Of a stretch of 60,321 bases of DNA, positions 2,421-39,966 are shown piece by piece. Under the pieces are notes generated by a model that was not told the DNA's origin, ran no database searches, and saw only the letters and a program-made list of their open reading frames with translations. This stretch comes from a virus. Taxonomy: Duplodnaviria > Caudoviricetes. Made by a program: the position numbers and the translations under genes. The stretch's first letter is position 1. Each line of letters begins with the position of its first letter. Where the stretch lies: positions 1-60,321 of IMG/VR virus record IMGVR_UViG_3300025154_001315. One strand, written 5' to 3'.

Positions 2421-2448
2421 TTGTAATCGTAGTGCGGCGTGCTACCTT
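2421..2448 (+). promoter_or_regulatory. Sigma70-like promoter TTGTAA-16-TACCTT
   Basis: Near-identical copy on the minus strand at ~39931-39967; shared consensus with 3 other sites. Confidence 0.75.
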
Positions 2449-2483
2449 GTAGGTGCAAGGCAGCGCACACAAGGAGGCCAAAC

Positions 2484-2723
2484 GTGAAGGACCAACGCCG
2501 TGAAGTGCCCCTGGCAGTGATGATTAAGATGGCCCAGCACTACCGGGACTGCCACACCGTCGGGCACCGGGGCTGCGCCCGATGCACCCCCGCCAAGTGC
2601 CCCCACTGCCAAGCGGAAGGCCGTGAGGAGTACGCGCGGCAGGCCAAGGTGCTGGACCGGGCGGCCAACGCCTTCTTGGCCGCGCACGGCTTCAACCCCT
2701 ACAACGTGACGAAGGGAGGGTAG
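2484..2723 (+). CDS. Hypothetical Cys/His-rich early protein
   Basis: AAGGAGG RBS, GTG start, CxxC motifs. Confidence 0.7.
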   Translation: MKDQRREVPLAVMIKMAQHYRDCHTVGHRGCARCTPAKCPHCQAEGREEYARQAKVLDRAANAFLAAHGFNPYNVTKGG

Positions 2724-2724
2724 G

Positions 2725-2963
2725 ATGAAGACCAAGCTGGGCTACCTGGGCAACTTCACCTTCAAGCACCCGAACGAGGGCCCCGACAACTACGCGCCGC
2801 GCTGCCCCTACTGCAAGGCGGAGCTCGACGTCCTCACCGATGAGGAGTACAAGAACAAGGTTTCACGCACATCAACTGCCACTGCCCCACCGTCGGCGAC
2901 CACGGCCACGCGGACCACTGCCCCGTCACCATCCTGTCCAAGAAGCTGAGCGAGGAGGAGTGA
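2725..2963 (+). pseudogene. Small Zn-binding protein with an apparent -1 frameshift near 2859
   Basis: The -1 frame reads GFTHINCHCPTVGDHGHADHCPV..EEE* with typical C-ending codons and stops 2 nt before the next ATG. Confidence 0.6.
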
Positions 2964-2965
2964 AC

Positions 2966-3310
2966 ATGAGGACCGGTATCAAGTGGGACGATGTGAAGCA
3001 GTGGATGCAGAGCGAGAAGTTTGAGGAGGAAGAGGACGGCAGCTTCCGCCGCGTCTACTTGGGCACCGTCTTCACGCTGTCGCCGTCCGGCAAGTTCTAC
3101 ATGCCGTGGGCGCGCAGCAACGTCACCGAGGAGGAGGCCGCGAAGGACGAAGAGTTCTACGATGCGCTGCATGAAGAGGCCGAAGAGCACGGCTACTTCA
3201 TCCAGTCCGGCGAAGGCGACCCGTGCGACATCTTTGTCACCGAAGCGAAGGAGGACGAGAAGCCGCCTGACAGCATCGTGCAGCCGGATCGCTGCCGGCA
3301 GGACGACTGA
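2966..3310 (+). CDS. Hypothetical acidic protein
   Basis: GGAGGAG RBS, typical codon usage. Confidence 0.75.
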   Translation: MRTGIKWDDVKQWMQSEKFEEEEDGSFRRVYLGTVFTLSPSGKFYMPWARSNVTEEEAAKDEEFYDALHEEAEEHGYFIQSGEGDPCDIFVTEAKEDEKPPDSIVQPDRCRQDD

Positions 3311-3750
3311 TGTCCGCCTCCCACTGGTCCAAGATGGGGCTGCCCACCCCCACGAAGGAGCCGAAGCCCATGAAGCTGATCGACCACATGAAGAGCATGG
3401 AAGCTGAGTACCGGGAGTTCCTCTCCAAGATGATACGAGCCAAGACCGAGCAGTTCAACAAGACGATCGAGGTCGCCAAGAACGTGCGCCCCATCCGGCG
3501 CGCCGCGCAGAAGCACGACCTGCGCTACTTCTGGGGCGACCAGCTCTGGTGCCAGGATGTCAGCATCATGTCCTGGGATGAGTTCGTGGATGACGAGGCC
3601 TTCAAGTTCGCCGATGATCCGATGAACGAGGTCAACGCGAAGCAGCCGGAGGACGACGAGTGCGCGGAGTGGCTGAACACCGTGTTCGATTCCGTCTACC
3701 GCAGCCTCGCCGACGAGTTGAAGCTGCCGCTGGATGTCCTGGAGAGCTAG
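3310..3750 (+). CDS. Hypothetical protein
   Basis: TGATG coupling, typical codon usage. Confidence 0.75.
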   Translation: MSASHWSKMGLPTPTKEPKPMKLIDHMKSMEAEYREFLSKMIRAKTEQFNKTIEVAKNVRPIRRAAQKHDLRYFWGDQLWCQDVSIMSWDEFVDDEAFKFADDPMNEVNAKQPEDDECAEWLNTVFDSVYRSLADELKLPLDVLES

Positions 3751-3761
3751 GCCCAAGCCAC

Positions 3762-3789
3762 TTGCAATCACCACCCGGCACACTACTAT
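3762..3789 (+). promoter_or_regulatory. Sigma70-like promoter TTGCAA-16-TACTAT
   Basis: Matches the phage promoter consensus. Confidence 0.7.
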
Positions 3790-3834
3790 TAAGGTGCGGT
3801 AACGGCGCCGCCAAGAACGCACAAGGGGCACAAC

Positions 3835-4125
3835 ATGGCGTTTGACTTTGCGGTGGGGCAGCGGGTAATTGTCATACAGGTAAGCCTGGGCGATACGGAC
3901 TGCGACCACCCGGAAGCGCGTGGTGTGATTACGCGCCTGGACCCCAGGGGCAGCTACAGCGGTTCAGGTGAGCTGGAGCTCCACATCAAGGCCGATGACG
4001 GAAACCCCACTGTGGAGCCGGCCGACTGGTGCATCCCCGAAGTTGCCTGCACCTGCCGCAAGTACAACGATCACACCACCGACTGCCCCGTGTCCACCTT
4101 CAGCACCGCCGCCCACTACCGCTAG
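3835..4125 (+). CDS. Hypothetical protein with C-terminal CxC..H...C motif
   Basis: ORF directly downstream of the promoter. Confidence 0.7.
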   Translation: MAFDFAVGQRVIVIQVSLGDTDCDHPEARGVITRLDPRGSYSGSGELELHIKADDGNPTVEPADWCIPEVACTCRKYNDHTTDCPVSTFSTAAHYR

Positions 4126-4135
4126 GAGGCAAGCA

Positions 4136-4465
4136 ATGATTACCGCCAAGACCAACAAGACGGAAGCGCAGTACACCATCGGCTACATCAAGGAAGCAAT
4201 ACAAGACATGAAGCCTGAGGGCTACAAGCAGACCGATGTGGATGGCGCGCTGGCTAAGCTGGCGGCGGTCAAAGGCGACGAGACGGTTAGCTTCACACGA
4301 TGGGAAGCGGACATCGTATGGTGGTGTCTCTACCACATGCTGGATGCCAGCAACGAAATCCTCTGCAATTCGTTGGAGGGGCAGCTCTCCGAGGGGCTGG
4401 CCCCCTACCGCGGACACACCGACGTCTGCCCGACCTGTGGGCAGCTCACCAACACCAAGTCCTAG
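4136..4465 (+). CDS. Hypothetical protein with C-terminal CPTCG
   Basis: AGGAGG RBS; followed by a terminator. Confidence 0.7.
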   Translation: MITAKTNKTEAQYTIGYIKEAIQDMKPEGYKQTDVDGALAKLAAVKGDETVSFTRWEADIVWWCLYHMLDASNEILCNSLEGQLSEGLAPYRGHTDVCPTCGQLTNTKS

Positions 4466-4485
4466 CGCCCGGCCGACGCTAGGAC

Positions 4486-4522
4486 TGCCCCGCCCGCTAG
4501 CACAGGGGCGGGGCTTTTCTTT
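4486..4522 (+). terminator. Intrinsic terminator
   Basis: GCCCCGCCC..GGGCGGGGC followed by TTTTCTTT. Confidence 0.75.
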
Positions 4523-4528
4523 GCTCGC

Positions 4529-5068
4529 GTAGCACGATTCTTGACAATCGTGCTACTCCAGTCATTAAGCAGATTCGTCGAGTTTGCGTGTAAAGTTCCT
4601 TTACACTGATCCTAAAGCCCGATCGACGATCCGCCACCCGAGCTCGACGTATCGATCATACGAGTGAACGAGGTACGACGATCAATCCTCGTCCATCCAA
4701 GAGCGAAGTGCGAAGAGCCGAGTCCCATCTCCCTCCGCCAGAGCTCGAAGTGTCCGGGAAACACGAACTTGACAGTCAGATCCTGAGTTCTTGGACTCCA
4801 AGATCTGAATTCGTCATTTCCTCATACGATCGCGGACGAGTTTGACAGTCTGAGAGCGTAGATCTACATTCCCAGGTCCGAATTCGTCGTTTCCTCGACT
4901 GATCGTAGATCTTGGCTCGTGGTTCGAGGATCTTGGGACCTGGGAGCGGAGATCTTGGCTCTTGGTTGGCGGGATCTCAGTTCTCGGGTCGTCGAATCTG
5001 AAGATCCGGGAAAGTTGACAGCCGGATGCGATAAGATCTAAGATCTAAGTTCCAAATTCGTCAGAATC
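4529..5068. other. Non-coding TC/GA-saturated block with ~17 GATC sites and TTGACA..AATTCGTC modules
   Basis: No ORF >=60 aa; GATC sites counted by eye; 73 bp-spaced degenerate repeat (4769/4842, 4807/4880). Confidence 0.85.
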
Positions 5069-5311
5069 GGGGGTGCGTAATGTAGTGCGCGGGGTGGGTG
5101 CGTACTTTACGCACCTAAAGTAGTGTGTAAGCAAGGTGTGTGCTAGGCTGCTTTGCCCGCGCACTACCATTAGCAAGCGGCCCGTGGGGCAGGGTGCTTG
5201 GCACTTGGCACCCCGGCTGCACTACAGCCCGGCAACGTTGCAGCAACGCGCCCCGGCCTAGGGGCGTGCCACCCCACTTGCAGTTAACCCGTACCATACA
5301 AAGGTAACAAC

Positions 5312-5833
5312 ATGGCCAAGCACACCACCACCACCACCACCACCACTGGCAAGGGCAAGCGCGTGCCCGTGCCCAACGCCAAGCCCCAGGCGCCCGCCAA
5401 GCAGGCCCCGGCCGCCGCGCCCGTGGCCCCGGCCAGCCCCAGCACGGCCGCCGCGCTGGGCAACGCGCCCCTGGGGCAGCCGCCCGCCAGCGTGGCCCCG
5501 CAGGCCAGCCCCGCCCCCCGGTACTTGGCGCTGGCGGGCGTGGCGGCCCTGGCCGGGGACGTGGCCCTGGCCGTGTTGTACAGCGGGGGCAACCCCAAGC
5601 GCGGCAACCCCAAGCCCGGCCAGCCCCGCAGCGCCAGCCAACAGGCGTGGTTGCTGTACGCCGGGTGCGCCACCGTGGGCGCCTACCGCGCGGCCGTGCA
5701 GGCGTACGTGGCCAGCGGCGCCATGCCCTTGCTGGGCCACTGCACCAACGCCAACGCCAACTTGGCGTGGGACGCGGCCCACGGGCTGGTTGCCCTGGGC
5801 GGCGCGGCCCCCCGCACCCTGCCCAGCAAGTAG
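5312..5833 (+). CDS. NPKR..TV..AWD..H domain protein with Thr/Ala/Pro/Lys-rich N-terminus (paralog of 40050..40313)
   Basis: AAGGT RBS; no Glu, 2 Asp; motifs shared with the 40 kb protein. Confidence 0.85.
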   Translation: MAKHTTTTTTTTGKGKRVPVPNAKPQAPAKQAPAAAPVAPASPSTAAALGNAPLGQPPASVAPQASPAPRYLALAGVAALAGDVALAVLYSGGNPKRGNPKPGQPRSASQQAWLLYAGCATVGAYRAAVQAYVASGAMPLLGHCTNANANLAWDAAHGLVALGGAAPRTLPSK

Positions 5834-5847
5834 CGGTTAACCCCTAG

Positions 5848-5882
5848 TGCGCCCCGGCCAACACTGGCCGGGGCGCTTTGTT
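5848..5882 (+). terminator. Intrinsic terminator or attenuator
   Basis: GCGCCCCGGCCA-ACAC-TGGCCGGGGCGC followed by TTTGTT. Confidence 0.7.
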
Positions 5883-5891
5883 AGGTACCCC

Positions 5892-6200
5892 ATGGCCCAA
5901 TGCACTTGCCACCCTGGCCCCCACCAGCCCGGCACCACGGCCCCCGGCTGCCCCACCTGTACCGCCTGCCCCACCTGCCAAGCACCACACTACCACCCCG
6001 CGCAAGCCATACCCTACGGCGTTTGCCCCATAGCGGGCGGCTGCCCCACCTGCCGCTACCCCAACAGCAACCCGTGGCCCCCGCAGTGCCCCTGGTTGTT
6101 GGGCACGGGCCCCAAGCCCAACGCCCCGCAGTGCCACACGGGCCCCTGCCCCCTTTGCCACCTGGGGCACCACGGGTGTTGCGGCTGTAGCGCCCCGTAG
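5892..6200 (+). CDS. Cys/His/Pro-rich metallothionein-like small protein
   Basis: TAGGT RBS; repeated CPTC; no Asp or Glu; both Ile encoded by ATA. Confidence 0.7.
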   Translation: MAQCTCHPGPHQPGTTAPGCPTCTACPTCQAPHYHPAQAIPYGVCPIAGGCPTCRYPNSNPWPPQCPWLLGTGPKPNAPQCHTGPCPLCHLGHHGCCGCSAP

Positions 6201-6216
6201 CGCGTAGTGCGTAGCT

Positions 6217-6251
6217 GCCCGGCCCCCTGCCCAGGGGGCCGGGCTTTTTTT
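6217..6251 (+). terminator. Strong intrinsic terminator closing the TC-free cassette
   Basis: GCCCGGCCCCCTG..CAGGGGGCCGGGC followed by T7. Confidence 0.9.
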
Positions 6252-6430
6252 GTGCCCGTTTTTGGTTTGGCACAACACCTGCTCACTCTCCGGCTTATTG
6301 GAGAGGAGTTCTATGGACGAAGTCCCGAGAACGAAGACCGAGGAACCTTCCCCGAGCCCCGAGCCCCGAGCCCAGACCTCCCAGCCAAGCCCCTTGCACC
6401 TCGTCCGTCAGCGGTGCTAGCTTGTAGCGC

Positions 6431-6922
6431 ATGGATCAAGACGTCATTGTAGAAGCCAAGTTCCTCGTCAGGCCCGCTGAGCCGGACGACTTCGCCTTCA
6501 TCTTCTCCACTTGGCTGAAGAGCTACCGGTACAACAACCAGGACGTCTCCCGCGTCCCGGCCGAGCTCTACTACCGCAAACACCACGAGGTGATTGCCCG
6601 GCTGCGTGACCGCTGCGCCCTCCCAGTCGCCTGCCTCCCTGATTCACCCGCTGTGATCATCGGCTTCGCAGCGCTGGAGCTGCCCCCGGCCCTGCTGAAC
6701 ACCTCCTCTCTCCCACCGCCCGCTCCGGCGCCTCCCGTCATCCACTGGGTCTACGTGAAGCGCGCGTGGCGGCGGATGGGCGTGGCCACTCGGCTTCTCG
6801 GGCAACTCTCCCCCTCCGCCTGCTGCCACTCCCACTGGACCAGCGCCATCCACCCCTGGGCTCACGTCAAGTGGTCCGGCCTCCGCTACGATCCGTACTT
6901 GCAGGTCACCCCGCAGTCCTAG
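6431..6922 (+). CDS. GNAT-family acetyltransferase
   Basis: VRPAEPDD start; IHWVYVKRAWRRMGVATRLL acetyl-CoA-binding motif A. Confidence 0.8.
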   Translation: MDQDVIVEAKFLVRPAEPDDFAFIFSTWLKSYRYNNQDVSRVPAELYYRKHHEVIARLRDRCALPVACLPDSPAVIIGFAALELPPALLNTSSLPPPAPAPPVIHWVYVKRAWRRMGVATRLLGQLSPSACCHSHWTSAIHPWAHVKWSGLRYDPYLQVTPQS

Positions 6923-6931
6923 GAGCACCGC

Positions 6932-7153
6932 ATGAACCCGCTATTCCAGGTCCACACGCTGAACGACGACGGCATCAACAAGGCGAGGGCGATGGCCGAG
7001 GACTTCAGTGCTCTCGTGTCGAAGTTGCAAATCATCCTCGGCGACGGCGGCGTCAAAAGCCGAGAGTTTTCGCTCGTCAAGACGAAGCTCGAAGAGGCCG
7101 CGTTCTTCGCCAAGAAGGCGATGGCCAACCAGCTCGAGAACCAGACGAAGTAG
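6932..7153 (+). CDS. Acb2/Tad1-like hairpin protein (candidate immune-signal sponge)
   Basis: SREFSLVKTKLEEAAFFAKKAMA resembles the SRExSLAxTKLEEA motif. Confidence 0.65.
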   Translation: MNPLFQVHTLNDDGINKARAMAEDFSALVSKLQIILGDGGVKSREFSLVKTKLEEAAFFAKKAMANQLENQTK

Positions 7154-7189
7154 AACTCCCAGTTCACCCCGCAGTCCTAGGAGCACCGC

Positions 7190-7537
7190 ATGGCCAAGTT
7201 ACTCGTCGAGAACATCGCTCGCATCACTCACGAAGCGAACCGCGCCTACTGCCTCGCCCTGGGGGACAAGAGCCAGCTTCCGTGGGACGAAGCGCCGCAG
7301 TGGCAGCGCGACTCCGCCATCAACGGTGTGCGACACACCCTGGAGCACCCGAGCGCTCCGCCCTCCGTCTCTCACGACTCCTGGCTCGCCGAGAAGAAAG
7401 CGGCGGGGTGGAAGTACGGACCCGTCAAGGATCCGGAGAAGAAAGAGCACCCCTGCTTCGTGCCCTACGAGGAGCTTCCCGAGGATCAGAAGCTCAAGGA
7501 CACGCTGTTCCAGAACGTCGTCCGCAGCTTCATCTAG
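7190..7537 (+). CDS. RyR-domain protein
   Basis: HDSWLAEKKAAGWKYGPVKDPEKKEHPCFVPYEELPEDQKLKD. Confidence 0.85.
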   Translation: MAKLLVENIARITHEANRAYCLALGDKSQLPWDEAPQWQRDSAINGVRHTLEHPSAPPSVSHDSWLAEKKAAGWKYGPVKDPEKKEHPCFVPYEELPEDQKLKDTLFQNVVRSFI

Positions 7538-7567
7538 TTCACCCCGCAGTCCTAGAGGAGAAGAACC

Positions 7568-7810
7568 ATGCACTACCGCAACGGACGTGAAGCGAAGAAC
7601 GGCGACAAGATCGTGAAGCTGGAGGGCGGCAAGGTCGTCGCCTTCGGGGTGCTGCACAGCGCCGTCCCCGGCAACGACTTCTGCAACGGAAACATCGCCA
7701 CCATCCAGCCGCCCAACGACTACGCCTGCATGTGCGATTGCCTGCACGTCGACGACGTCGACGCGGTCCTGGCCGAGAAGGGCCTGGACAAGCGCCCCGC
7801 CGGAAAGTAA
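7568..7810 (+). CDS. Hypothetical protein (MHYRNGREAKNGD..)
   Basis: GAGGAG RBS, typical codon usage. Confidence 0.8.
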   Translation: MHYRNGREAKNGDKIVKLEGGKVVAFGVLHSAVPGNDFCNGNIATIQPPNDYACMCDCLHVDDVDAVLAEKGLDKRPAGK

Positions 7811-7844
7811 TCGGAAGTTCACCCCGCAGTCCTAGGAGCCCACG

Positions 7845-8165
7845 ATGCCCAGGCGTCTCCCGAAGCACGAAGTCGTCGAGTCCGAAGAGCCCGAGATCGT
7901 CACCGAGAACCCAACCGGCTTCTTCAAGGCCCCCAAGGCGCGGACGGTGATCCACGTCCGTACGCACGTCACCACGCAGATCGGCGCGTTCGGCAGCAGC
8001 CTGGACGCCAGCAAGAACAACCTCAAGATGGAGCTGCGCCCCGACCTGGGCGGCGTGCTGGTCTGCGCCAACTTCAACGGCAAGGAGCGCGAGTTCCTGG
8101 TCCCCTTCTCCATCATCGCCCACGCCGAGCTGGCGGTCGAGGTCGTCGACGTCGAGAAGGAGTAG
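7845..8165 (+). CDS. Hypothetical protein
   Basis: RBS within the repeat; typical codon usage. Confidence 0.75.
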   Translation: MPRRLPKHEVVESEEPEIVTENPTGFFKAPKARTVIHVRTHVTTQIGAFGSSLDASKNNLKMELRPDLGGVLVCANFNGKEREFLVPFSIIAHAELAVEVVDVEKE

Positions 8166-8193
8166 CCCCTCCCCGCCCGCAAGGAGCACGAAG

Positions 8194-12335: not shown

Positions 12336-12368
12336 TTCTCGCAGCTCACCCGTAGCAAGGAGTAGATC

Positions 12369-13322: not shown

Positions 13323-13370
13323 TACCTCCCCCGCAGTGCTGCCGCCAAGCGGCAGGAAGGACAAAGGATC

Positions 13371-14606: not shown

Positions 14607-14627
14607 TCGCCAGCGCGCAGTGAACTA

Positions 14628-14663
14628 GGGGGAGCCCGACCCATCGGGCTCCCCCGCCCTTTT
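14628..14663 (+). terminator. Terminator after the capsid gene
   Basis: GGGGAGCCCGA..TCGGGCTCCCC followed by a T run. Confidence 0.6.
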
Positions 14664-14673
14664 CGGAGGAATC

Positions 14674-15613: not shown

Positions 15614-15625
15614 GAGACCTGACTC

Positions 15626-18270: not shown

Positions 18271-18271
18271 G

Positions 18272-25700: not shown

Positions 25701-25969
25701 TCGCGCAGTTGGACGAAGTGCTGAACTGGCTGCACAAGGAACAGGGCCGCGCGCACCTCCGGCCTGACGGCGGCCAGCGTAGCAGCGGCCCGCTACAGAC
25801 GAAGAGCAGCCCCTACGACGCCGGCCCTCCCGCCGACACCTACGGGGACTGGGCCGAGTTCATGGACTTCAACGGCGTGCCGGGCGCTCCGAGGACGGCG
25901 GGTACGCAGACGAACGCGAGCGTGAGGGCCGTGGGGGAAGTGACGAAGCCCGGTAAGGTTCGTCGTTAG
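22772..25969 (+). CDS. Putative ejection/pilot protein, low complexity
   Basis: Gln/Ala helical segment, G(F/Y)DxxG repeats, repeated [YF]xxGG motifs. Confidence 0.55.
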   Translation: MPLFTDMVKTATARKTGSSGLALGGKQPRVFPFDREPATPGLLDGVASSSVAGQYSAPVASPEPVAAPTQAPAPKPQGDASLPFESASATPAAPLPFAPPPEQVDGLVLPDMSVGDPDAFTGEAFDPYSDDGLDAWGFDREGFGKDGFNKAGYDREGYNRDGLNAAGYDRDGLGWGVMKPDDFEPPYNPKYDTKKDGDQRFDMGGARTRTAAEKAAAAENYQGGSDFVGDADEEERPGPPGSSTGTDAPDYHEGGIVGYAEGGTVSSPVWGYDVINGVRTDGNEQARNDQLAYIQQLQELAAGRGPSAARAQLMLAMTQNQNNMAAQAASARGINPALALTNALRQGSMANQNSAGQAALLRAQEQLAATGQLGTALGQMRQQDLLSSQLSQQAALANQNRLDNILGALITGGASALAKSGLGGGGGGMPSSKGGDGPSTDVGSSGLALGSKDGKPGASPFSDDKVYADDFYIPGVTPTTTISSGDVGNSSVSTTEGLDQGPAPLPEQPAFDVSGAEMPFYDALPPGGGVLSELPSDIPVMVGGEELGGDLVPEPAPLESLPELDMQIQPTEPDFFLPEEKLEEPVYDPYEDNYGGDFPSSDESEAPSEPVETEAPPEPADDDEDPNDWTGEEWFSGGMAGTQDLDDEGGPVPGEPKYPGVDHPANDTVDAELTPKEVVLPLSVTQSANPPEAARAFMQSVMDQEEGEPDYGDVLEARRFAEGGEVPAAKPSFMDNVRKGWSEFDMKGALADAVKQSVVGGLGAGMNTVSGNIPKMLSDVYAPFAPAVDKHITRPALNAAGQHLSPKGELAMRSMAQGLLNPIEGVSPGDQLDEYGMTPKGRGAVEDTSPAAMFAMTQVPNLLMGAASRLRPAAAPASRGAQWDAYLKAQGKPALKAAPPLASPESTRAAPASYVADVRDIDDLLNLNVRREPVGGDFMAMEKAQIFDRKSKGPINIDPPGKVTPAFERAPDTDLTVAQLDEVLNWLHKEQGRAHLRPDGGQRSSGPLQTKSSPYDAGPPADTYGDWAEFMDFNGVPGAPRTAGTQTNASVRAVGEVTKPGKVRR

Positions 25970-26160
25970 AGGCGCTTGAAGTTCTTGCGGGCCTTGCAGA
26001 TGACGGTGTAGTCGTCACGGTTGCCAGGAGTACACAGCGAGCGGTCTTTGGCCTTGCAGGGCATGTCGCACAGGTGGTCATTGCAGCAAATCCACCTTCC
26101 GCCGGTAGTGCCCTCGGCGGGTGTCTGATACAGGAAGGGGCACCGCACGTCTTTGGTCAT
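25966..26160 (-). CDS. Antisense Cys-rich 64 aa protein with its own promoter
   Basis: AAGGAG RBS; 7 Cys; promoter at 26195-26222. Confidence 0.75.
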   Translation of the reverse strand: MTKDVRCPFLYQTPAEGTTGGRWICCNDHLCDMPCKAKDRSLCTPGNRDDYTVICKARKNFKRL

Positions 26161-26194
26161 GTGGCTCTCCTTGTTAAGTGCTACCCTTGCCTAC

Positions 26195-26222
26195 ATGGTA
26201 CGCCCCGCAAACCCGATAGCAA
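26195..26222 (-). promoter_or_regulatory. Sigma70-like promoter TTGCTA-16-TACCAT
   Basis: Matches the phage promoter consensus. Confidence 0.7.
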
Positions 26223-26245: not shown

Positions 26246-28042
26246 ATGCCCTTCAAGAATCCCGAGGCGAAGAGCCAGAGCGACAAGAGCTACTACCAGG
26301 ACCACAAGTTCACGGTCCTGGGCGAGAATTCCGCCTTCTTCAACCTGCGCTCCCCCACAGGGCAGACGGTGCGGGTGGCCAAGGCGGGGTTGAGTCCCAC
26401 CACCCTGGAGCGCATCCGGGGCTTCAACCCGCCGCAGAAGATGGCGGGGGGCGGAGAGGTGGAGGAACAGGCCGAGCAGACGAGTCCGCTACTCGACGAG
26501 CCCGGGGAAGGTGAGACGTTCGACCCATCCGCAGGCAGCCCTGAGCTCGGCGTATTCGATTACATCGCTCCCGCTGGCGAGGGCAAGGCCCCTGTGGGCC
26601 CCCTGACCCCCAAGATCGCCCAGGCGGCGAGCGCAGTCGCAGACATTGTCGCGCCGAAGCAGACGGTTCCGTTCGACCAGTCCATTCCGGATGCGTCCTC
26701 CGCGCAAGGCAAGACGGCTCCCGGCCTGACTCCGTTCATGCCGGTGGACAAGTTCATGGCGGAGTCGGACAAGCTGCCCGGCGTGCTGCCGGAGCCGCCA
26801 CCGCCCCCCGAGGACGACGAGGCGATGAACGATTTCACGCTCAGGTTGAAGAACCTGATGCGCGACGCAGCCAGCGCGTCCTACGTCGGGCGCCCCAACA
26901 TGCCCGAGTTCCCGGAGCTGAGCTTCGACGGGCTGGCCGACATGAAGACGCAGGAGAAGCTCCTGGGCGTGGCGGGGGCGCTGGCCAAGGAGCGCGAGGC
27001 CGCCGCCCTGGAGAACTACCTGGGCAAGAAGAACGAGCTGGGCGCCAAGCAACAGGAAGAGCTCGCCAAGCGCAACGCCGCCACCGCCGAGAAGATGAAG
27101 GACATCGAGAACACGCGCATCAACCCCAATCAGTTCTGGGAGTCGAAGAGCAACGGGGACCGCGCCGTGTCGCTCATCAGCATCATCCTGGGCGGGCTGG
27201 GCGCGGGGCTCCAGCGGTCCAACACGAACCAAGTGCTCCAACTCCTGGAGAAGTCCGTGGAGCAGGACGTCGAGGCGCAGAAGGCCAACCTGGGCAAGAA
27301 GCAGAACGCCCTCAGCATGTACATGGCCGAGACGCGTGACATCAAGGAGGCGCAGAAGCTTGCCGCCGCCGACCTGTACGACGTGGTGGCTACGCAGATG
27401 AAGATTGCCGCCGCCAAGTCCGGCAGCGAGCAGGCGCTCATCCTGGGCAACCAAGCCGCCGCGAAACTCCAGTGGCAGGCGACGCAGTATCGTCAGGGCT
27501 ACCTCCTGCAGAAGTATGGCGGCGAGATGGACAAGGCCAAGATGGAGCTTCAGCGCAACGTCGCCAACGCGAACATGCAGGCCCAAGCGGTGAAGGCCAA
27601 GCTCAAGCAGTACAACGACGCCCGTGCCCTCATGGTCACCGGGCCGGGCGGCAAGCGGTATGTCGCCAAGTCGCCCACCGACTACAAGGCGGCGCAGGAG
27701 AAGATGGTAGGCTGGCAGACCGTGATGGGTCCGCTCAGGGAGTTGAGGGGGCTGTATGCCAAGGATAAGATGGGCATCTGGAACCTGCTCTCCGACAAGG
27801 CAGCGCAGGCGGAGGTCTACCAGAAGATCCTCACGCAGACCATCGCCCGCGCCAACGAGCGCGGCGTGCTGTCTGACAAGGACCGCAAGTTCTACACCGA
27901 CCTCGTTGGCACGCCCATCGGCCTGAAGCCCAACTCCAGTCAGTACGGGGCGCGGCTCTCCGCACTGAGCGACGTCCTGGACAACGCCGTGATGTCAGCG
28001 CTGTCCGTCCACACCGAACCGCTGGACACCGCGCTGCGCTAG
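26246..28042 (+). CDS. Putative ejection protein
   Basis: Helical, Ala/Gln/Lys-rich, one hydrophobic Gly-rich segment. Confidence 0.55.
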   Translation: MPFKNPEAKSQSDKSYYQDHKFTVLGENSAFFNLRSPTGQTVRVAKAGLSPTTLERIRGFNPPQKMAGGGEVEEQAEQTSPLLDEPGEGETFDPSAGSPELGVFDYIAPAGEGKAPVGPLTPKIAQAASAVADIVAPKQTVPFDQSIPDASSAQGKTAPGLTPFMPVDKFMAESDKLPGVLPEPPPPPEDDEAMNDFTLRLKNLMRDAASASYVGRPNMPEFPELSFDGLADMKTQEKLLGVAGALAKEREAAALENYLGKKNELGAKQQEELAKRNAATAEKMKDIENTRINPNQFWESKSNGDRAVSLISIILGGLGAGLQRSNTNQVLQLLEKSVEQDVEAQKANLGKKQNALSMYMAETRDIKEAQKLAAADLYDVVATQMKIAAAKSGSEQALILGNQAAAKLQWQATQYRQGYLLQKYGGEMDKAKMELQRNVANANMQAQAVKAKLKQYNDARALMVTGPGGKRYVAKSPTDYKAAQEKMVGWQTVMGPLRELRGLYAKDKMGIWNLLSDKAAQAEVYQKILTQTIARANERGVLSDKDRKFYTDLVGTPIGLKPNSSQYGARLSALSDVLDNAVMSALSVHTEPLDTALR

Positions 28043-28051
28043 GGGACTTCG

Positions 28052-32547: not shown

Positions 32548-32548
32548 G

Positions 32549-34420: not shown

Positions 34421-34923
34421 GCCCCAAGATCCTCGGCGTCCTCGCCATCGTCGCAGCAGGCGCAGGCGTCGCGCTCAGCGCGGGCGAAGCGGTGGACGTG
34501 GACGCGGTGGCCACGGCAGAGGACGGCAGCAAGAGCGTCGTGACCGTGCGCTGCAAGGCGGGCGCGAAGGCCGAGGAGATGGACTGCGGCGACCTCCCGG
34601 CGAACGTGGAGCCGGTGGCGCTGACCGCGAGCGCGCCCTACGTCACGCTCTCGGCTGCGGGCACGAAGGAGGCGCGCGAGCAGCCTTGCGCGTGCGGGCC
34701 GGTGGACGGCAAGCGGGTCTGCACCGTCCTCGACGCCGAGGGTGAGCGGCCAGCGCGCCCCGGCGAGCACCTCGCGGCCGGGACGTGGCAGGGCGCGTGC
34801 GCGCCTAAGCCCTGCTTCGAGCATGCCGCCGTCATCGCCCAGCGCGGCCTCGGCTACGCGCAGCCCGTCGCGTGCGGCGGCAGGGCGGCGAAGGAAGCAG
34901 CAGAGATAGGAGGAGCACCATGA
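34417..34923 (+). CDS. Cys-rich signal-peptide-bearing protein
   Basis: MSPKILGVLAIVAAGAGVALSA; 8 Cys. Confidence 0.7.
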   Translation: MSPKILGVLAIVAAGAGVALSAGEAVDVDAVATAEDGSKSVVTVRCKAGAKAEEMDCGDLPANVEPVALTASAPYVTLSAAGTKEAREQPCACGPVDGKRVCTVLDAEGERPARPGEHLAAGTWQGACAPKPCFEHAAVIAQRGLGYAQPVACGGRAAKEAAEIGGAP

Positions 34924-35177
34924 CGAAGAACGAAACCGCTACCTGGGTCCGCTGGTCCATCGGAGTTCTCGTCACGCTGGTCTTGGCCCTGGGTGGCTAC
35001 GCCCTGGCCCAAGACCGAAAGGTGACTACCCTGGAGGTCCAGCAGAAGTACACCGACCAGAAGGTGAGCGACGTGCTCCAGCGGGTGGAGGCGCTGCTCA
35101 ACAAGCAGGAACCGGTGATCGAAGCGATGAAGAGACACATCGCAATCGACGAGCGCGACTGGAAGGCTTCCAAGTGA
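34920..35177 (+). CDS. Single-TM coiled-coil protein (holin/antiholin-like)
   Basis: N-terminal TM segment; directly precedes the endolysin. Confidence 0.55.
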   Translation: MTKNETATWVRWSIGVLVTLVLALGGYALAQDRKVTTLEVQQKYTDQKVSDVLQRVEALLNKQEPVIEAMKRHIAIDERDWKASK

Positions 35178-35716
35178 AGTTCACCTCCCCAGTGGAGCCG
35201 ATGATCATCACCAGCTTCTTCGGCCCACGCCCCAAGCCCAACGGCCCCACGCACCCTGGCCTGGACTTCGCGGCGGTGCTGGGGCAGGCGGTGCGCGCCG
35301 TGCTCCCTGGGGTCGTGCTTCGCAGCTACTACAGCCCCAACCTCCGCCGCGTTCCCGTCTTCCTGCCGGAAGCAGGCCCCGACGGGCTCCCCATCCAAGC
35401 GATCAAGGACGGCAAGCCGGTCTTCAAGATGGAGAACTACCCCTGGCGCCCTGGCGACCCGAAGCCCGACGGCATGGGCTTCGGGGAAACGGTGCTGCTC
35501 CTCCACGAGGACGGGCGGCTCACGCGGTACGCCCACTTCAGCAAGCGTCTGGTCAGGGCCGGAGAGCGCGTCGCTCAGGGCCAGATACTCGGACAGGCCG
35601 GGACCTCCGGCTACAGCTTCGGAGTGCATCTGCACTTCGAACTCAGGGGCGATGGAGGGCGAAGCTACTTCGATCCCCTCCCCGAGTTCGCCCACCTCAA
35701 CCCCGCAGTCGTGTAG
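35174..35716 (+). CDS. M23-family peptidase, probable endolysin
   Basis: HPGLD (HxxxD), YAH, GTSG..GVHLHFE (HxH). Confidence 0.9.
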   Translation: MKFTSPVEPMIITSFFGPRPKPNGPTHPGLDFAAVLGQAVRAVLPGVVLRSYYSPNLRRVPVFLPEAGPDGLPIQAIKDGKPVFKMENYPWRPGDPKPDGMGFGETVLLLHEDGRLTRYAHFSKRLVRAGERVAQGQILGQAGTSGYSFGVHLHFELRGDGGRSYFDPLPEFAHLNPAVV

Positions 35717-35725
35717 GAGACCAAG

Positions 35726-36379
35726 ATGCCCGAGAACGAAAACCTGACGTTGGAGCAGAAGGTGGCCAAGCTGGAGCAGGCGTGGAACACCAGCCCGGAC
35801 ACCGTCATCCCCGCCAAGTACGCCAAGCTGGCGTGGATCATCTTCATGGTCCTGTCCATGCTCGTCGCCGGCTGGCAGAGCACCGCGATCCTCATCTGGG
35901 GGCAGGACAGCAAGTACGCCGCGATCTCCGCCATCTGGGTCGGCGTGGTCGCGGCCATCATCCGCTTCCTCACCACCAACAGCTTCGGCAACGCGGCCAA
36001 GCTGCTCGTCGTCGGGCTGCTCGGCCTCTCGGTGCTCGGCACCTCGGCGTGCGTCCACTGGAACAAGCCCAAGCTGGAGGCCGGGCTGAAGCAGTGTGCT
36101 GCCGGCTTCGTCGATGCTGAGGTCCAGGGCATCCTGCCCGACGTGCTGAAGGCCATCCAGGGGGACAAGGCGGACTGGCAGGCCCAGCTCGATCAGGTGC
36201 TGATGCGTGGTGGGATGGCCGCCATCTGCGCCCTGGGTGTCGTCATCAGCACGCTGGAGAGCGGCACGGGGGGCACGGCGGGCGCCATGCCCCTGGTGAT
36301 GCAGCCCCCGGAGGCCGGGGGTCTGCCCAGGGCGGTGGTCCTGCTCCGGGCCTACAGCTATGTGGAGAGCAGGCAGTAG
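35726..36379 (+). CDS. Membrane lysis protein: two TM segments plus a lipoprotein-signal-like segment
   Basis: Two hydrophobic helices, then AKLLVVGLLGLSVLGTSA-C. Confidence 0.55.
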   Translation: MPENENLTLEQKVAKLEQAWNTSPDTVIPAKYAKLAWIIFMVLSMLVAGWQSTAILIWGQDSKYAAISAIWVGVVAAIIRFLTTNSFGNAAKLLVVGLLGLSVLGTSACVHWNKPKLEAGLKQCAAGFVDAEVQGILPDVLKAIQGDKADWQAQLDQVLMRGGMAAICALGVVISTLESGTGGTAGAMPLVMQPPEAGGLPRAVVLLRAYSYVESRQ

Positions 36380-36402
36380 CGCGGGCCGGTTTCGCGCTCG
36401 GT

Positions 36403-36442
36403 GGGGGGCTTGGCGGCTCGGCGCCAAGCCCCCTGCTTTTTA
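36403..36442 (+). terminator. Terminator at the end of the late operon
   Basis: GGGGGCTTGGCG..CGCCAAGCCCCC followed by TGCTTTTT. Confidence 0.75.
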
Positions 36443-36735
36443 GGGCCCCGTGGGGGTGGCGGTACAGCATCTCGACCGCCAAAACAGCCCCTCCTGAGCG
36501 TTTGCGGCCCGCTGCCAGGTAGGGCGGCGGGCCTAGCTTTTGGCGCTCCCGAGGGGCGGGGCCCGCTACTTCTTGCACTTCTGACACACGGCCGTCTGTA
36601 TCTTGGTGCCGAGTGCCGTCCAGGACGTAATCTTCAGCGAGCAGCGGTGTTCGCAGCACATCTTGCCACAGACACGGCACGTCCATGTGGGAGGGCAGCC
36701 CTTGCGGAAGCACACCCTCCTCACCATCTTCTTCA

Positions 36736-37071
36736 TCACCGCCCCCTGCTAAGTCCGTAGGCCACGCCCGCCCCGAACCCCGCGCTCCTGGCGTCGTCCA
36801 GCGCGCACCAGATGGCGAACTGCGCGATGCTCCGGTGCTTTGCCACGATGACGCCCTGCCGCTCCAGCTCGGTGACCAGCCACGCCGCCCGGTCGCGGCT
36901 CAGGTCCAGGTACTTGGGGGCCTTGCGGTGCTTGACGGGCTTGGGCGGGACGCGCCGGGGGCTGGGCTTGGGCAGCACCCTCCTCCGCACCCCCGCCAAG
37001 CTGGCGGGGAGGGCGAAGGGCTTCCAGATGCCCGGCAGCGCGATGACCTTTGCGGTGTTCATGTTGGTCAC
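36736..37071 (-). CDS. Hypothetical basic protein
   Basis: Coupled ORF. Confidence 0.55.
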   Translation of the reverse strand: MTNMNTAKVIALPGIWKPFALPASLAGVRRRVLPKPSPRRVPPKPVKHRKAPKYLDLSRDRAAWLVTELERQGVIVAKHRSIAQFAIWCALDDARSAGFGAGVAYGLSRGR

Positions 37072-37274
37072 TCCGTTCGGAAGTCGCCGCCGTCGTACAG
37101 CCTGCGGAGCGCGCCTTCAATGTCCATCAGCTTGGTGAGCTTCTTTCCTAGGTCGTCCTCGTTCGCGGCGGGGCACAGCCCGTAGCTGACGGCGGCCTTG
37201 CGGTGCATCCGCAAGAGCTGTTGGAAGCCGTGCTTCTGCGCCAGCGCCACCTCCCGTTCTGCGTCCGTCTTCAC
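37068..37274 (-). CDS. Hypothetical protein
   Basis: GGAGG RBS, GTG start. Confidence 0.6.
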   Translation of the reverse strand: MKTDAEREVALAQKHGFQQLLRMHRKAAVSYGLCPAANEDDLGKKLTKLMDIEGALRRLYDGGDFRTE

Positions 37275-37468
37275 GGTTGCACCTCCCGCATGTCCATCAC
37301 CTCGCCCCCGTTGAGCTGCCGCACCAGCTCCTCCACCACGCAGCACCAGAACTCCCGGCCGGGGCTGTGGCGGGGGAACTCCAGCGCCACCTCCGCTGCC
37401 ACCCGGCGCGCGGTGAGGGGGTGATGTTCCTTCAGCATCCTGACGGCCTGCTTCTTTGCGTCTTCCAC
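37271..37468 (-). CDS. Hypothetical protein
   Basis: AGGAGG RBS. Confidence 0.6.
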   Translation of the reverse strand: MEDAKKQAVRMLKEHHPLTARRVAAEVALEFPRHSPGREFWCCVVEELVRQLNGGEVMDMREVQP

Positions 37469-37526
37469 GATGTTCCTCCTACGGTGAGGGCGGGGCCGCG
37501 CGGCCCCGCCCGTTGGTCTGCCAGAC

Positions 37527-38606
37527 CTACGCCTTCACCTCGACCTGCTTCAGCAGCGACGACGCGCGCTTCTCCAGGTCCAGCCGGTCGTCGTTCCACT
37601 TCATGCTGTGGGCGTGGCCCGTCAGGCCCTGCACCACGCCCCACAGGCTCCGGGGGTTCAGCCCCGGCTCCTCGCTGGCGATGCGGAAGGCCTCCTGCGC
37701 CTGCTTGGGGCTGAAGCCCCTGGCCTGGACCCAGGCGTAGGTGTCCTCGTCCGTCTTCGCCACCTCCAGGGCGCGCGCAGCCTTCACCGCCGCCGCGACG
37801 GGGGACACCTTCGCCTCCAGGTACTTCTGGAGCGCCGGCTTCGCCTCCGCCATGTAGCGGCGGGGGCCGCCGCTGCTGTGGCGGATGCGGAGGTCCAGGG
37901 CGAGGTCGAAGCCCCAGATGATGCGGTTGTCGCAGATGCGGTTGTAGTAGAACAGCGTGAGGAAGAAGGCCCCCGCGCCCACCTCGCTGTTGCCGATGAT
38001 GAGGCCCTTGTAGAGCGCCGACTTGCCGGGGATGTCGATGGGGTGGCTGTCGTCCACGAGGCAGATGAAGACGTCCCGGTCGCTGGCGTACAGGGTCGTC
38101 GCCTTCTTGGGGTCGGTCTTGGCGTAGCTGGCGCTGGGCACCTTCCACACGCCCAGGTCCATGTGCTCCAGCACGGCGCCGCTGGCGTCAGCGTCGTAGA
38201 TGCGCCCGTAGGTCGGGCTGGTGAAGCACGACGCGCTCCACGCCTTGCCGTCGTTGCGGAGCAGGGTCTTGCTGTTGTTCTCCTCCGCCCGCCCCAGGCT
38301 GTGCTGGAGCGGTACGATGGCCACCTCCGCCGGCAGGCTGCGGAGGTAGCTGGCGGGGGCGTGGGCGCGGGAGCAGAGCTGGCCGAACGCCCAGTTGTTG
38401 AGACGCGTGGGAACCTTCTTCGCCTTGTCCTGGATGGACACCTCGCCGTCCTTCGCGCTCAGCTCCATGGCCCGCAGGTCCAGCACGCGCTCCAGGCTCT
38501 TTTCCTTCTTCTGCAGGTTGTACTCGTGGAGGGCCTTCATGCTGAGGAAACGCTGGTCGTCGGGCCTCGTGCTCCACTCCTTGTTCAACCGCATGTCGTT
38601 CGACAT
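37527..38606 (-). CDS. DUF932-family protein
   Basis: EWSTRPDDQRFLS, WAFGQLC, YGRIYD, LYASDRDVF, NSEVG, CDNRIIWG motifs; own promoter and downstream hairpin. Confidence 0.8.
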   Translation of the reverse strand: MSNDMRLNKEWSTRPDDQRFLSMKALHEYNLQKKEKSLERVLDLRAMELSAKDGEVSIQDKAKKVPTRLNNWAFGQLCSRAHAPASYLRSLPAEVAIVPLQHSLGRAEENNSKTLLRNDGKAWSASCFTSPTYGRIYDADASGAVLEHMDLGVWKVPSASYAKTDPKKATTLYASDRDVFICLVDDSHPIDIPGKSALYKGLIIGNSEVGAGAFFLTLFYYNRICDNRIIWGFDLALDLRIRHSSGGPRRYMAEAKPALQKYLEAKVSPVAAAVKAARALEVAKTDEDTYAWVQARGFSPKQAQEAFRIASEEPGLNPRSLWGVVQGLTGHAHSMKWNDDRLDLEKRASSLLKQVEVKA

Positions 38607-38650
38607 TGTTGCCTCCTTGGTTTGACCACCTGTTGCCTTGCCGCAAGTAC

Positions 38651-38678
38651 AAGGTAGCGCGTTTGCCTGTGAACACAA
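38651..38678 (-). promoter_or_regulatory. Sigma70-like promoter TTGTGT-16-TACCTT
   Basis: Matches the phage promoter consensus. Confidence 0.7.
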
Positions 38679-38703
38679 GCCTAAATGCGCTACTTCTGGC
38701 GTT

Positions 38704-38898
38704 CTAGTGCGGTATCTTCGCCGTCTTCCACGCGTCCGGCAGGAAGCCTCCCTTGTCCAGCCAGCCGTCCAGCGCCTCCACCAGCTCCGCGAGGCGGACG
38801 GCGTCCTCCTCCAACGGCGGGTTGTGCTCATCGCCGTAGAGCATACGCTGCACGATGCGGCGCTGCTCTTCCAGGTTCGCGTTCGGGTCCATGTTCAC
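38704..38898 (-). CDS. Hypothetical protein (MDPNANL..LDGWLDKGGFLPDAW)
   Basis: Coupled ORF. Confidence 0.7.
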   Translation of the reverse strand: MNMDPNANLEEQRRIVQRMLYGDEHNPPLEEDAVRLAELVEALDGWLDKGGFLPDAWKTAKIPH

Positions 38899-39086
38899 TT
38901 CTCCTTGAAGCGGACTTCGTCAATCCACTTGGCGCAGTTTCGGCAGCCTCGGCGCGGAAGGAACGTTTCATCGCCCGGCGTGGTCGTTATCTTGTTGGAA
39001 CCGCAGAAGGGGCATTCGTCCGGGTGCATTTTGGTCATACACTCGAACCACTCCCGCTGGACAGAGATGGTGTAGGCCATGTTCAC
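38895..39086 (-). CDS. Small Zn-finger protein
   Basis: CPFCG..CRNC. Confidence 0.65.
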   Translation of the reverse strand: MNMAYTISVQREWFECMTKMHPDECPFCGSNKITTTPGDETFLPRRGCRNCAKWIDEVRFKEK

Positions 39087-39274
39087 CTCCCTCCGCCAAC
39101 GGCGCGGCGCGGTTCGTCGTTCTCAGGGCTCTGCACCCAGGTCTCCTTCACGTCGCTGTGGTCCGGGCAGGTATCGTCGTCGCGGCCCAGCGCCTTGCCG
39201 CACACTCCGCAGTAGCGGACCAGCCGCCAGCCCTTGCAGAGCATGAGCGTGCCCGCCTCCAGCCAGTCGTTCAC
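39083..39274 (-). CDS. Small Cys-containing protein
   Basis: GTG start, CGVCG, coupled. Confidence 0.55.
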   Translation of the reverse strand: MNDWLEAGTLMLCKGWRLVRYCGVCGKALGRDDDTCPDHSDVKETWVQSPENDEPRRAVGGGR

Positions 39275-39612
39275 TTTCCCTCCTTGGCGCAGGCGACACA
39301 GAGCTCGAAGCCGCGTTCCGTGACCAACGTAGCGGTCTGTTCTGAGATGTCTTTGTCGCAGTTGAAGCACCGCTTGGGCAGCTTCTTGGTCGAGCCCCGC
39401 TCCTTGGACTTGTAGAGCACCAGCGCGGAGAACCGAGTATCCGGGTGCTTCTGGTTGTACCCCTCGAAGACTTCCGTGTTGGCGGTGGAGAACTTGATGG
39501 TCATCAGCTCACACTTCTCCTCCCGCAAGCGCGCCAGCAGCTTATTCAGGTGGTCTTGGAAGGCCAGTGCCTCCGGGTGCGTGACCAGCTCCGCGTGCGT
39601 GAAGGCGCTCAT
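39271..39612 (-). CDS. Hypothetical protein with C-terminal Zn finger
   Basis: CFNC..CVAC. Confidence 0.65.
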   Translation of the reverse strand: MSAFTHAELVTHPEALAFQDHLNKLLARLREEKCELMTIKFSTANTEVFEGYNQKHPDTRFSALVLYKSKERGSTKKLPKRCFNCDKDISEQTATLVTERGFELCVACAKEGK

Positions 39613-39902
39613 CGCTCACCCCTGCTGAGCGCCAGCTCCTCGCGGTGCTCCTTGGCGTGCTGCGCGGCGCAGGCTTCGCCGCAGAAGGGGTGGAGCTCGC
39701 CGCCCCACCGCTCCAGGCCGCACTGGACGCACTTGCCCAGGAGCCACTTGTTTCCCTTGCGGACCAGCGAGGCGAGCTGCGACGCCCCAAACTCCGCCAC
39801 GATGCGGACGCTGGCGGGGTCCTCTGGGTTCATCCCCTGCAACCGCAAGCGCAGCCCTTCGATCGTCGCCAGCACTTCCCACTTCTCAAACGTCTTCGCC
39901 AT
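39609..39902 (-). CDS. Hypothetical Zn-finger protein
   Basis: GGAGG RBS; CVQC..CGEAC; downstream of a promoter. Confidence 0.65.
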   Translation of the reverse strand: MAKTFEKWEVLATIEGLRLRLQGMNPEDPASVRIVAEFGASQLASLVRKGNKWLLGKCVQCGLERWGGELHPFCGEACAAQHAKEHREELALSRGER

Positions 39903-39938
39903 GTTCAACCTCCGTGTTTGGTTGCCCGCTGCACCTAC

Positions 39939-39966
39939 AAGGTAGCGCGCCGCACTACGATTACAA
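39939..39966 (-). promoter_or_regulatory. Sigma70-like promoter TTGTAA-16-TACCTT
   Basis: Near-identical to 2421-2448. Confidence 0.75.

Follow-up and report, generated by a model that had tools for sequence, protein, structure and literature searches.

What would lead a phage to keep one dinucleotide out of its promoters? The window analysed here is the whole 60,321-bp IMG/VR record IMGVR_UViG_3300025154_001315, which represents a whole virus, is rated complete and has ~65% G+C. It carries a family of candidate promoters in which a single TC directly follows the -35 box, and the DNA around that TC contains neither TC nor its complement GA. We propose, with a probability of roughly 45%, that TC marks thymines for hypermodification in this phage and that its early promoter zones exclude TC.

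Candidate promoters and their TC/GA-free zones

A sequence-only reading of the window had described five promoters with 16-bp spacers and TACYWT -10 boxes, each followed by a tract free of TC and GA. We searched both strands with the pattern CTTG-N3-TC-N14-TA-N3-T and recovered exactly these five sites, and the tracts matched the list of TC/GA-free runs to the base (47 nt in four cases and 48 nt in one). All five sites are intergenic and face a gene with a Shine-Dalgarno sequence:

2421-2474, plus strand: P2421, with -35 box TTGTAA (2421-2426), TC (2427-2428) and -10 box TACCTT (2443-2448); TC/GA-free tract 2428-2474 (47 nt); Shine-Dalgarno sequence of the gene at 2484-2723
3762-3815, plus strand: P3762, with -35 box TTGCAA, TC and -10 box TACTAT (3762-3789); tract 3769-3815 (47 nt); gene 3835-4125
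26169-26222, minus strand: P26222, with -35 box TTGCTA, TC and -10 box TACCAT (26195-26222); tract 26169-26215 (47 nt); gene 25966-26160
38625-38678, minus strand: P38678, with -35 box TTGTGT, TC and -10 box TACCTT (38651-38678); tract 38625-38671 (47 nt); gene 37527-38606
39912-39966, minus strand: P39966, with -35 box TTGTAA, TC and -10 box TACCTT (39939-39966); tract 39912-39959 (48 nt); gene 39609-39902

The -10 box is TACCTT in three sites and TACTAT and TACCAT in the others. In the -35 box, TTG is invariant and is followed at positions 4-6 by TAA, CAA, CTA, TGT and TAA, with position 4 never A. In each of the five sites the TC/GA-free run starts at the C of the conserved TC. Four runs extend to the GA of the Shine-Dalgarno sequence, and in P38678 a single TC lies ten bases short of it.

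The four similar upstream tracts that had been noted alongside the five promoters are also present, and three of them contain a related arrangement:

56079-56139, minus strand: sixth member, CTTGTGTTC, with an 18-bp spacer and -10 box TAGCTT (56110-56139); tract 56079-56132 (54 nt)
1165-1237, minus strand: looser member, TTGCCA-N17-TAGGCT (1205-1233) in a 73-nt TC/GA-free tract; gene 897-1151
48761-48817, minus strand: looser member, TTGCCC with the TC shifted by one base and -10 box TAGGGT (48788-48817); tract 48761-48809 (49 nt); gene 48322-48711
44006-44076, minus strand: 71-nt TC/GA-free tract upstream of gene 43685-43996, starting directly after TAATC-ACACTAC; no -35/-10 pair was recognised in it

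The looser member at 1205-1233 has no TC after its -35 box, and its nearest GA lies 4 nt upstream of that box. A relaxed scan for TTG-N3-TC gave nine matches: six were intergenic, with at least 46 nt free of TC and GA after the TC, and three lay in coding sequences (CDSs), with 1-2 nt. When we instead asked for TTGYNN-N15-18-TAnnnT with a TC/GA-free spacer through +20, all eight matches were intergenic and gene-facing. The 14-17 nt immediately upstream of the -35 hexamer are likewise free of TC and GA in the six TC-bearing members. The cleared zone therefore spans ~77 nt (about -52 to +25), roughly the reach of a bound polymerase, with a single TC at about -29/-28. This TC is invariant in all six, and the three bases preceding it vary.

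Because TC/GA had been picked after inspection, we tested all ten dinucleotide classes. Compared with shuffled controls, as the sequence-only reading had proposed, TC/GA-free runs of at least 47 nt were about threefold in excess, with 22 in the window against 7.0 ± 2.6 (maximum 16) in 200 dinucleotide-preserving shuffles. Nor were such runs equally frequent inside CDSs: 13 of the 22 are mostly non-coding, against 8.5% non-coding DNA in the genome (91 genes, 91.5% coding; these and all other coding and non-coding counts depend on our own gene calls, which were based on G+C at third codon positions (GC3) and not made with a standard gene finder). At matched tail probability, non-coding DNA held 9 of 18 long runs for TC/GA, compared with 0/4 for CT/AG, 0/14 for AC/GT and 0/9 for CA/TG. 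Of 24 genes preceded by a spacer of at least 60 nt, 6 had a run of at least 40 nt directly before the GA of the Shine-Dalgarno sequence, and of 60 operonic genes none did (Fisher p = 3e-4). Across the -75 to -15 windows of 25 genes, the observed/expected ratio for TC/GA was 0.61 (100 vs 162.6), the lowest among the asymmetric classes.

Genome-wide, the same dinucleotides are slightly over-represented (observed/expected 1.10 for TC and 1.07 for GA), and outside the island at 5068-6283 described below, coding and non-coding DNA carry them at densities of 0.126 and 0.121. TC/GA is thus undepleted in the genome as a whole, which argues against ordinary site avoidance. The exclusion is symmetric between strands and also covers the untranscribed spacer and the -10 box. 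For single promoter tracts, the probability of containing no TC or GA was 2e-4 to 2e-3 with the tract's own letters shuffled, and ~1e-3 per tract with the invariant columns fixed. P39966 and P2421 are near-copies in inverted orientation (87% identity over 58 nt; 34 of 47 tract positions alike); all other tract pairs agree at only 16-26 of 47 positions, so shared descent does not explain the free tracts. Taken together, the data support an exclusion of TC/GA that is tied to promoter zones and acts at the DNA level. Long TC/GA-free runs within genes were also considered as internal promoters and rejected, since those inspected were Pro/Ala-rich linkers, driven by composition.

We tentatively read the sites as sigma-70-type early or middle promoters, a reading for which the odds are a little short of even. 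Their spacers (16 bp in five, 18 bp in the sixth) and their -10 boxes, in which position 2 is A and position 6 is T, are of the sigma-70 type. None of the five strict sites reaches the 9/12 threshold of a sigma-70 consensus scan; P2421 scores 7/12 by our own count. A phage RNA polymerase with its own promoter type was rejected as an alternative, as no such polymerase gene turned up among the window proteins scanned.

The genes served by these promoters are small orphans, replication genes or modification genes, and none of the promoters heads structural genes. Pfam and PHROG scans gave no informative family match for the genes directly behind them. The gene behind P26222 encodes 64 aa and lies antisense inside the structural module; the gene behind P38678 has a weak DUF932 match under the Pfam cut-off and matches phrog_1362. 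The sixth member heads an operon that runs into nucleotide and modification genes. Upstream of the terminase gene, TC/GA is undepleted (17 vs 12.3 and 21 vs 17.0 expected).

A further word recurs in the same upstream regions. CGCACTAC/GTAGTGCG is the top intergenic-enriched 8-mer of the window, with eight of nine copies intergenic (p = 2e-8); copies and related words lie at 1239, 1344, 2429, 5082, 5162, 6204, 39953, 56149 and elsewhere. The longer form TAATC-RCACTAC (GAATC at 1239) precedes minus-strand genes at 1239, 44069, 53007 and 56149. The word is a candidate operator or second promoter element.

With 37.5 kb between them, the twin promoters (2420-2457 and 39930-39967) also make up a short inverted repeat. 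In one sequencing run, X1, a contig joins the P2421 core to sequence downstream of P39966 (opposite strands; loose end at 2457). This joint is most likely an assembly-graph crossing at the inverted repeat, but it may instead reflect an inversion isomer.

A TC/GA-free operon behind a TC-rich block of TTGACA sites

The strongest anomaly of the window is a 1.2-kb island almost without TC or GA, preceded by a block of TTGACA promoter units:

4541-5062, plus strand: tandem promoter units, with TTGACA at 4541, 4769, 4842 and 5015, directly upstream of the island
5068-6283, plus strand: TC/GA-free island of 1216 nt, with 2 GA and 0 TC against 123 expected
5312-5833: orphan open reading frame 1 (ORF1) of the island, 173 aa
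5892-6200: orphan ORF2 of the island, 102 aa, Cys-rich with repeated CPTC
5849-5876 and 6217-6244: strong terminator hairpins in the island

The island also takes in the leaders of both ORFs, and its extent is that of a transcription unit that begins just after the last promoter and stops a little beyond the second terminator. When we recoded the two proteins by genome codon usage, ORF1 acquired a mean of 31 TC/GA (minimum 18), against 2 observed, and ORF2 a mean of 12.5 (minimum 4), against 0 observed. This excess arises with the proteins held fixed, and the constraint therefore lies on the nucleic acid. It is strong enough to shape the proteins: ORF1 contains no Glu and 2 Asp. The ribosome-binding sites of the island avoid GGAG. 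Neither island protein had a Pfam family or a usable Atlas lead, and ORF1 matched only itself among 5.8 billion proteins (near length range searched). An origin of the island by C-to-T hypermutation was rejected because its segments are 61-77% GC.

In the upstream block, each TTGACA unit is followed by a conserved RAWTTCGTC box, and two pairs of units lie 73 nt apart. The sites at 4842 and 5015, both 10/12, are the only ones in the genome to pass the sigma-70 consensus scan. The block is also dense in GATC: 17 of the 167 genomic copies fall within 4560-5050, many of them as AGATCT. It could serve as a series of tandem early promoters, as an origin-like block of iterons, or as both.

Proposed thymidine hypermodification and its rivals

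The gene content of the window supports the presence of a thymidine-hypermodification pathway, as judged by homology. The genes concerned, in which 5-hmdU stands for 5-hydroxymethyldeoxyuridine, are:

48826-49173, minus strand: nucleotide kinase-like, phrog match
49170-49685, minus strand: HD 5'-deoxynucleotidase-like (HD/YfbR-like, E 5e-11)
50106-51194, minus strand: thymidylate-synthase homologue (PF00303, E 2e-20), a candidate dUMP hydroxymethylase
51657-52427, minus strand: TAGT-like glycosyltransferase, family match
53016-53969, minus strand: 5-hmdU DNA kinase homologue (PF18723 HMUDK_hel, E 1.8e-27, residues 8-290 of 317)
53966-54616, minus strand: FkbM-type methyltransferase, family match
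54613-55548, minus strand: dCMP-deaminase-domain protein (E 8.7e-14), unusually long at 311 aa
6431-6922: GNAT-like gene, outside the minus-strand cluster

The kinase has homologues in 116 phage records, and the matches listed are 23-29% identical to it. It is presumed to be the writer, and its context would be TC. Besides this kinase the cluster contains the TAGT-like glycosyltransferase and the FkbM-type methyltransferase, and no Pplase-type enzyme was among the matches of the proteins scanned. The adduct that thymidine finally receives may be of a type not yet described.

The palindromes of the window offer a separate view of the context. Protection of the T in TC would leave no need to avoid restriction-type palindromes with TC/GA. 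We considered the 44 six-base palindromes expected at least 5 times and called a palindrome strongly avoided at Poisson P < 1e-3. None of the 14 with TC/GA was strongly avoided, compared with 11 of the 30 without (Fisher 0.009), and of the ten classes TC/GA alone had significantly few avoided sites (p < 0.05). TG/CA palindromes were among the most avoided (GTGCAC 0 vs 13.9 expected; CAGCTG 3 vs 42.4). Besides these two, CCCGGG (2 vs 23.6), AAGCTT (2 vs 17.1) and CCGCGG (8 vs 47.8) are very strongly avoided in the window; the avoided 6-bp palindromes probably mirror the restriction systems of the host.

We applied the same test to two control phages. In PAE1, an M6-like Yuavirus, 1 of the 11 CA/TG palindromes was avoided, compared with 16 of 27 others (p = 0.010); for TC/GA palindromes the count was 8 of 13. 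In the first 50 kb of PaMx11, both classes were exempt (0/14 TC/GA and 0/11 CA/TG avoided). In the two controls the signature thus agrees with the TG and TG/TC contexts in the literature, and it suggests TC as the context in the window phage. TC, on either strand, is most likely the hypermodification context here. PAE1 has no island comparable to 5068-6283; 5 of its 15 long CA/TG-free runs fall in its 5.8% non-coding DNA. Among its CA/TG-free runs are 27100-27178, 59581-59638 and 61973-62037, and at least one free run holds a promoter-like TTTACT-N17-TATACT, with TTG avoided and TC frequent, a mirror image of the window phage.

The sequence-only reading had set a transcriptional explanation against restriction avoidance. 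This now appears to be a false choice, because the palindrome statistics suggest that modification in the TC context is itself an anti-restriction device.

In the mechanism that we propose, a lytic phage would hypermodify thymidines followed by C after replication, so the injected genome would arrive modified. Bulky or charged groups at C5 of T would stick out into the major groove, where they would get in the way of the host RNA polymerase holoenzyme and of other readers of DNA. Selection would then remove TC and GA on both strands from the zone contacted by the polymerase, roughly -52 to +25. The non-consensus -35 box (TTGY.., position 4 always T or C) would be one outcome, because TTGACA itself contains GA. 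The same selection would have cleared the whole 1.2-kb early operon. Cleared stretches would carry only T or 5-hmdU and hence be readable on incoming, fully modified DNA. The single TC retained at -29/-28 would be a functional part of the motif, either as plain sequence or as a modified base. By standard promoter geometry, half a helical turn should separate it from the middle of the -35 box, with its major groove facing away from the polymerase, and a modified base at this position could be tolerated, or read from the other face.

Published transcription assays bear on the central step. Escherichia coli RNA polymerase is reported to give 350% of normal transcription on a template with 5-hydroxymethyluracil (5hmU), and treatment of that template with 5-HMUDK to cut this to 37% of the level with natural DNA, equal to 10% of that with the 5hmU template (assay results in PMC6457204). 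A passage in PMC11550810 describes bulkier major-groove groups as stopping bacterial polymerase at promoters. The earlier interpretation is partly supported: the TC/GA exclusion, the predicted pathway, the dinucleotide specificity of such modification in published work and the reported drop in output speak for it. As a general rule, a block of initiation by modified TC fails, as the TTGACA sites are TC-rich.

Several results weigh against our reading. The stretch at 4466-5135 is the TC/GA-richest of the genome (126 vs 83 expected), and the TTGACA sites lie within it, so the exclusion of TC near promoters has exceptions. Across the genome GATC, with a TC on each strand, is under-represented (167 vs 263.6; 0.63), and a protected site predicts no such deficit. 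The palindrome result rises to ~0.09 after Bonferroni correction for ten classes, and a Mann-Whitney test on the palindrome ratios was non-significant (p = 0.13). The kinase is only 23-29% identical to its homologues in cultured phages, and Pfam and PHROG scans of 59 of the 91 gene calls found no aGPT-Pplase-type transferase. In PAE1, CA/TG is barely depleted in upstream windows (observed/expected 0.93); promoter-zone exclusion is therefore not general among such phages. The collections searched held no relatives of the window phage in which conservation could be followed. The sequencing runs listed as carrying the phage are all DNA and none RNA.

A more elaborate version of the hypermodification reading would accommodate the tandem block. 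The absence of TC would keep early promoters and an immediate-early operon readable on incoming modified DNA, one retained modified T at -29 would serve as an epigenetic tag that tells packaged from newly replicated DNA, and the TTGACA block, packed with TC and GATC, would depend on modification, the whole acting as a temporal switch. That the tandem TC-rich promoters are deliberately modification-sensitive is speculation, and we consider the complete switch unlikely. If true, a temporal transcription switch would be encoded in the placement of a hypermodification context.

Four other explanations could account for the cleared zones. In the first, which we also consider improbable though not negligibly so, TC and GA are excluded to escape an enzyme that attacks TC in exposed DNA, such as a nuclease of the host or the phage, or a TC-preferring DNA cytosine deaminase that acts on melted or heavily transcribed DNA. 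Known enzymes include deaminases that prefer TC and a T4 endonuclease specific for dC. Among the phage's own genes are those for an HNH nuclease, a PD-(D/E)XK nuclease and the long deaminase-domain protein, and the exclusion sits where DNA melts or is heavily transcribed, namely in promoter zones and in the operon behind tandem strong promoters. However, both strands are cleared equally, including the template strand, the non-melted spacer and the downstream duplex, whereas the rest of the transcribed genome has normal or slightly raised TC/GA (observed/expected 1.07-1.10). Such an enzyme also does not predict the palindrome signature.

In the second, the retained TC is itself hypermodified and read as a mark by a phage activator or polymerase, and the weak promoters fire only on phage DNA. 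This idea, put forward in the sequence-only reading, draws on the invariance of the TC as the sole TC/GA in the ~77-nt zone, and the weak sigma-70 matches make a helper plausible. But no candidate activator was identified, the genes downstream belonging to no informative family, and an ordinary base-specific contact explains a conserved TC equally well. In the twin promoters, moreover, the TC is part of a longer word, AATCGTAGTGCG, which recurs elsewhere as a candidate operator. We hold this explanation to be rather less probable than a TC-attacking enzyme.

The third places the constraint on RNA, with leaders and the island transcript avoiding UC and GA because of an endoribonuclease or of spurious pairing between Shine-Dalgarno and anti-Shine-Dalgarno sequences. 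It fits the tracts that end at the Shine-Dalgarno GGAG (four of five) and an island that matches a transcription unit. Yet in each tract ~28 nt (spacer, -10 box and discriminator), in addition to the 14-17 nt upstream of the -35 box, are untranscribed and still free of TC and GA. Avoiding UC and GA would also be two rules on RNA and is one rule on duplex DNA. We regard an RNA-level constraint as quite improbable.

The last, that without any selection the tracts were copied from one ancestral promoter-leader cassette that lacked TC and GA by chance, is very improbable: the near-identity of P2421 and P39966 fits it, but the other tract pairs are too dissimilar and each tract is too improbable on its own (above), the exclusion recurs in unrelated upstream tracts and in the 1.2-kb island, and no other asymmetric dinucleotide class behaves alike.

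Hypermodifications have been studied almost entirely as armour against nucleases. If TC is the context, as our preferred reading holds, this phage pays for its armour by rewriting its promoters, and the price would extend to non-consensus -35 boxes, altered ribosome-binding sites and one operon's proteins nearly without Asp and Glu. Two signatures, exempt palindrome classes and context-free promoter zones, could then predict the context without chemistry across phages with a 5-hmdU DNA kinase.

The phage record and known systems

The window phage is uncultivated, and its sole known source is groundwater metagenomes. A metagenome scan returned one contig of the identical phage at 99.98% identity, and contigs from three other groundwater runs were fragments of the window phage, with 0 differences in the listed pieces. 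The remaining gene layout, from the GC3-based calls and family matches, is as follows:

3-794, minus strand, continuing in frame at 60084-60320: pentapeptide-repeat gene (PF00805, E 1.6e-48), ~343 aa when joined
1613-8165, plus strand: small orphan genes
8567-36379: structural module with terminase, portal and major head protein
36566-59690, minus strand: replication and nucleotide genes

The pentapeptide-repeat gene spans both ends of the record, which is therefore a circularly closed assembly cut within a gene. A Logan contig of run X1 has its own end reaching window positions 7-138. Megablast and blastn searches for relatives among cultured phages gave no match, and the nearest cultured relatives of the DNA polymerase share just 42-43% identity. 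In IMG/VR, the promoter pattern had one match, unrelated, and the DNA polymerase found two loci at 39% identity, neither with dinucleotide-free islands; no relatives of island ORF1 or of the kinase were found there.

Among known systems, the closest are phages that hypermodify thymidine by the 5-hmdU kinase route. The account of sequence context in PMC6449724 infers TG/TC for M6, ViI and phiW-14, and that in PMC13458397 places dapT of SH-Ab 15599 in the TG context and less in TC. The modified share is given as 43% of T-derived bases in ViI (figures in PMC6449724), as ~23% of T in SH-Ab 15599 (figures in PMC13458397), and as up to half of thymidines (a statement in PMC8989533). Like these phages, the window phage has a thymidylate-synthase homologue and a 5-hmdU DNA kinase, ~35% of its T lie in the proposed context (7425 of 21040 precede C), and restriction sites that bear this context escape counter-selection. 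Unlike them, with TG or TG plus TC, its signal is TC alone and TG sites are avoided; no Pplase-type enzyme was found among the proteins scanned, and it has a TAGT-like glycosyltransferase and an FkbM-type methyltransferase instead.

The effect of hypermodification on a phage's own gene expression is called underexplored in a passage of PMC11550810, and the word "promoter" occurs 0 times in the available text of PMC13458397. We found no paper on promoter zones or operons written without a hypermodification context in a full-text search, a type of search that leaves most subscription journals uncovered. The components are known, that is, context-specific hypermodification and modification-sensitive transcription in vitro; their arrangement here is not. 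The in vitro switching experiments reported in PMC6457204 supply the mechanistic premise: transcription from a sigma-70 promoter template falls when an enzyme of the same family acts on its 5hmU. They differ in using, as described there, an artificial, fully substituted Pveg template with the phospho intermediate only, and include no natural phage promoter and no context-free design.

The pattern also resembles restriction-site avoidance in phages, in that a short word is removed by selection on DNA and not on protein. Here, however, the word is a dinucleotide, and its exclusion is local to promoter zones and one operon, whereas genome-wide it is slightly over-represented.

Finally, there are promoters controlled by GATC methylation in or near their -10 and -35 boxes, and there are vertebrate CpG islands. 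As in those systems, readability in the window phage would depend on whether a stretch carries a short modifiable motif. Those systems mark or unmark a motif that exists, whereas here the promoter zone has lost the motif itself. A closer analogue may be found in the tandem promoters at 4541-5062, which are rich in GATC.

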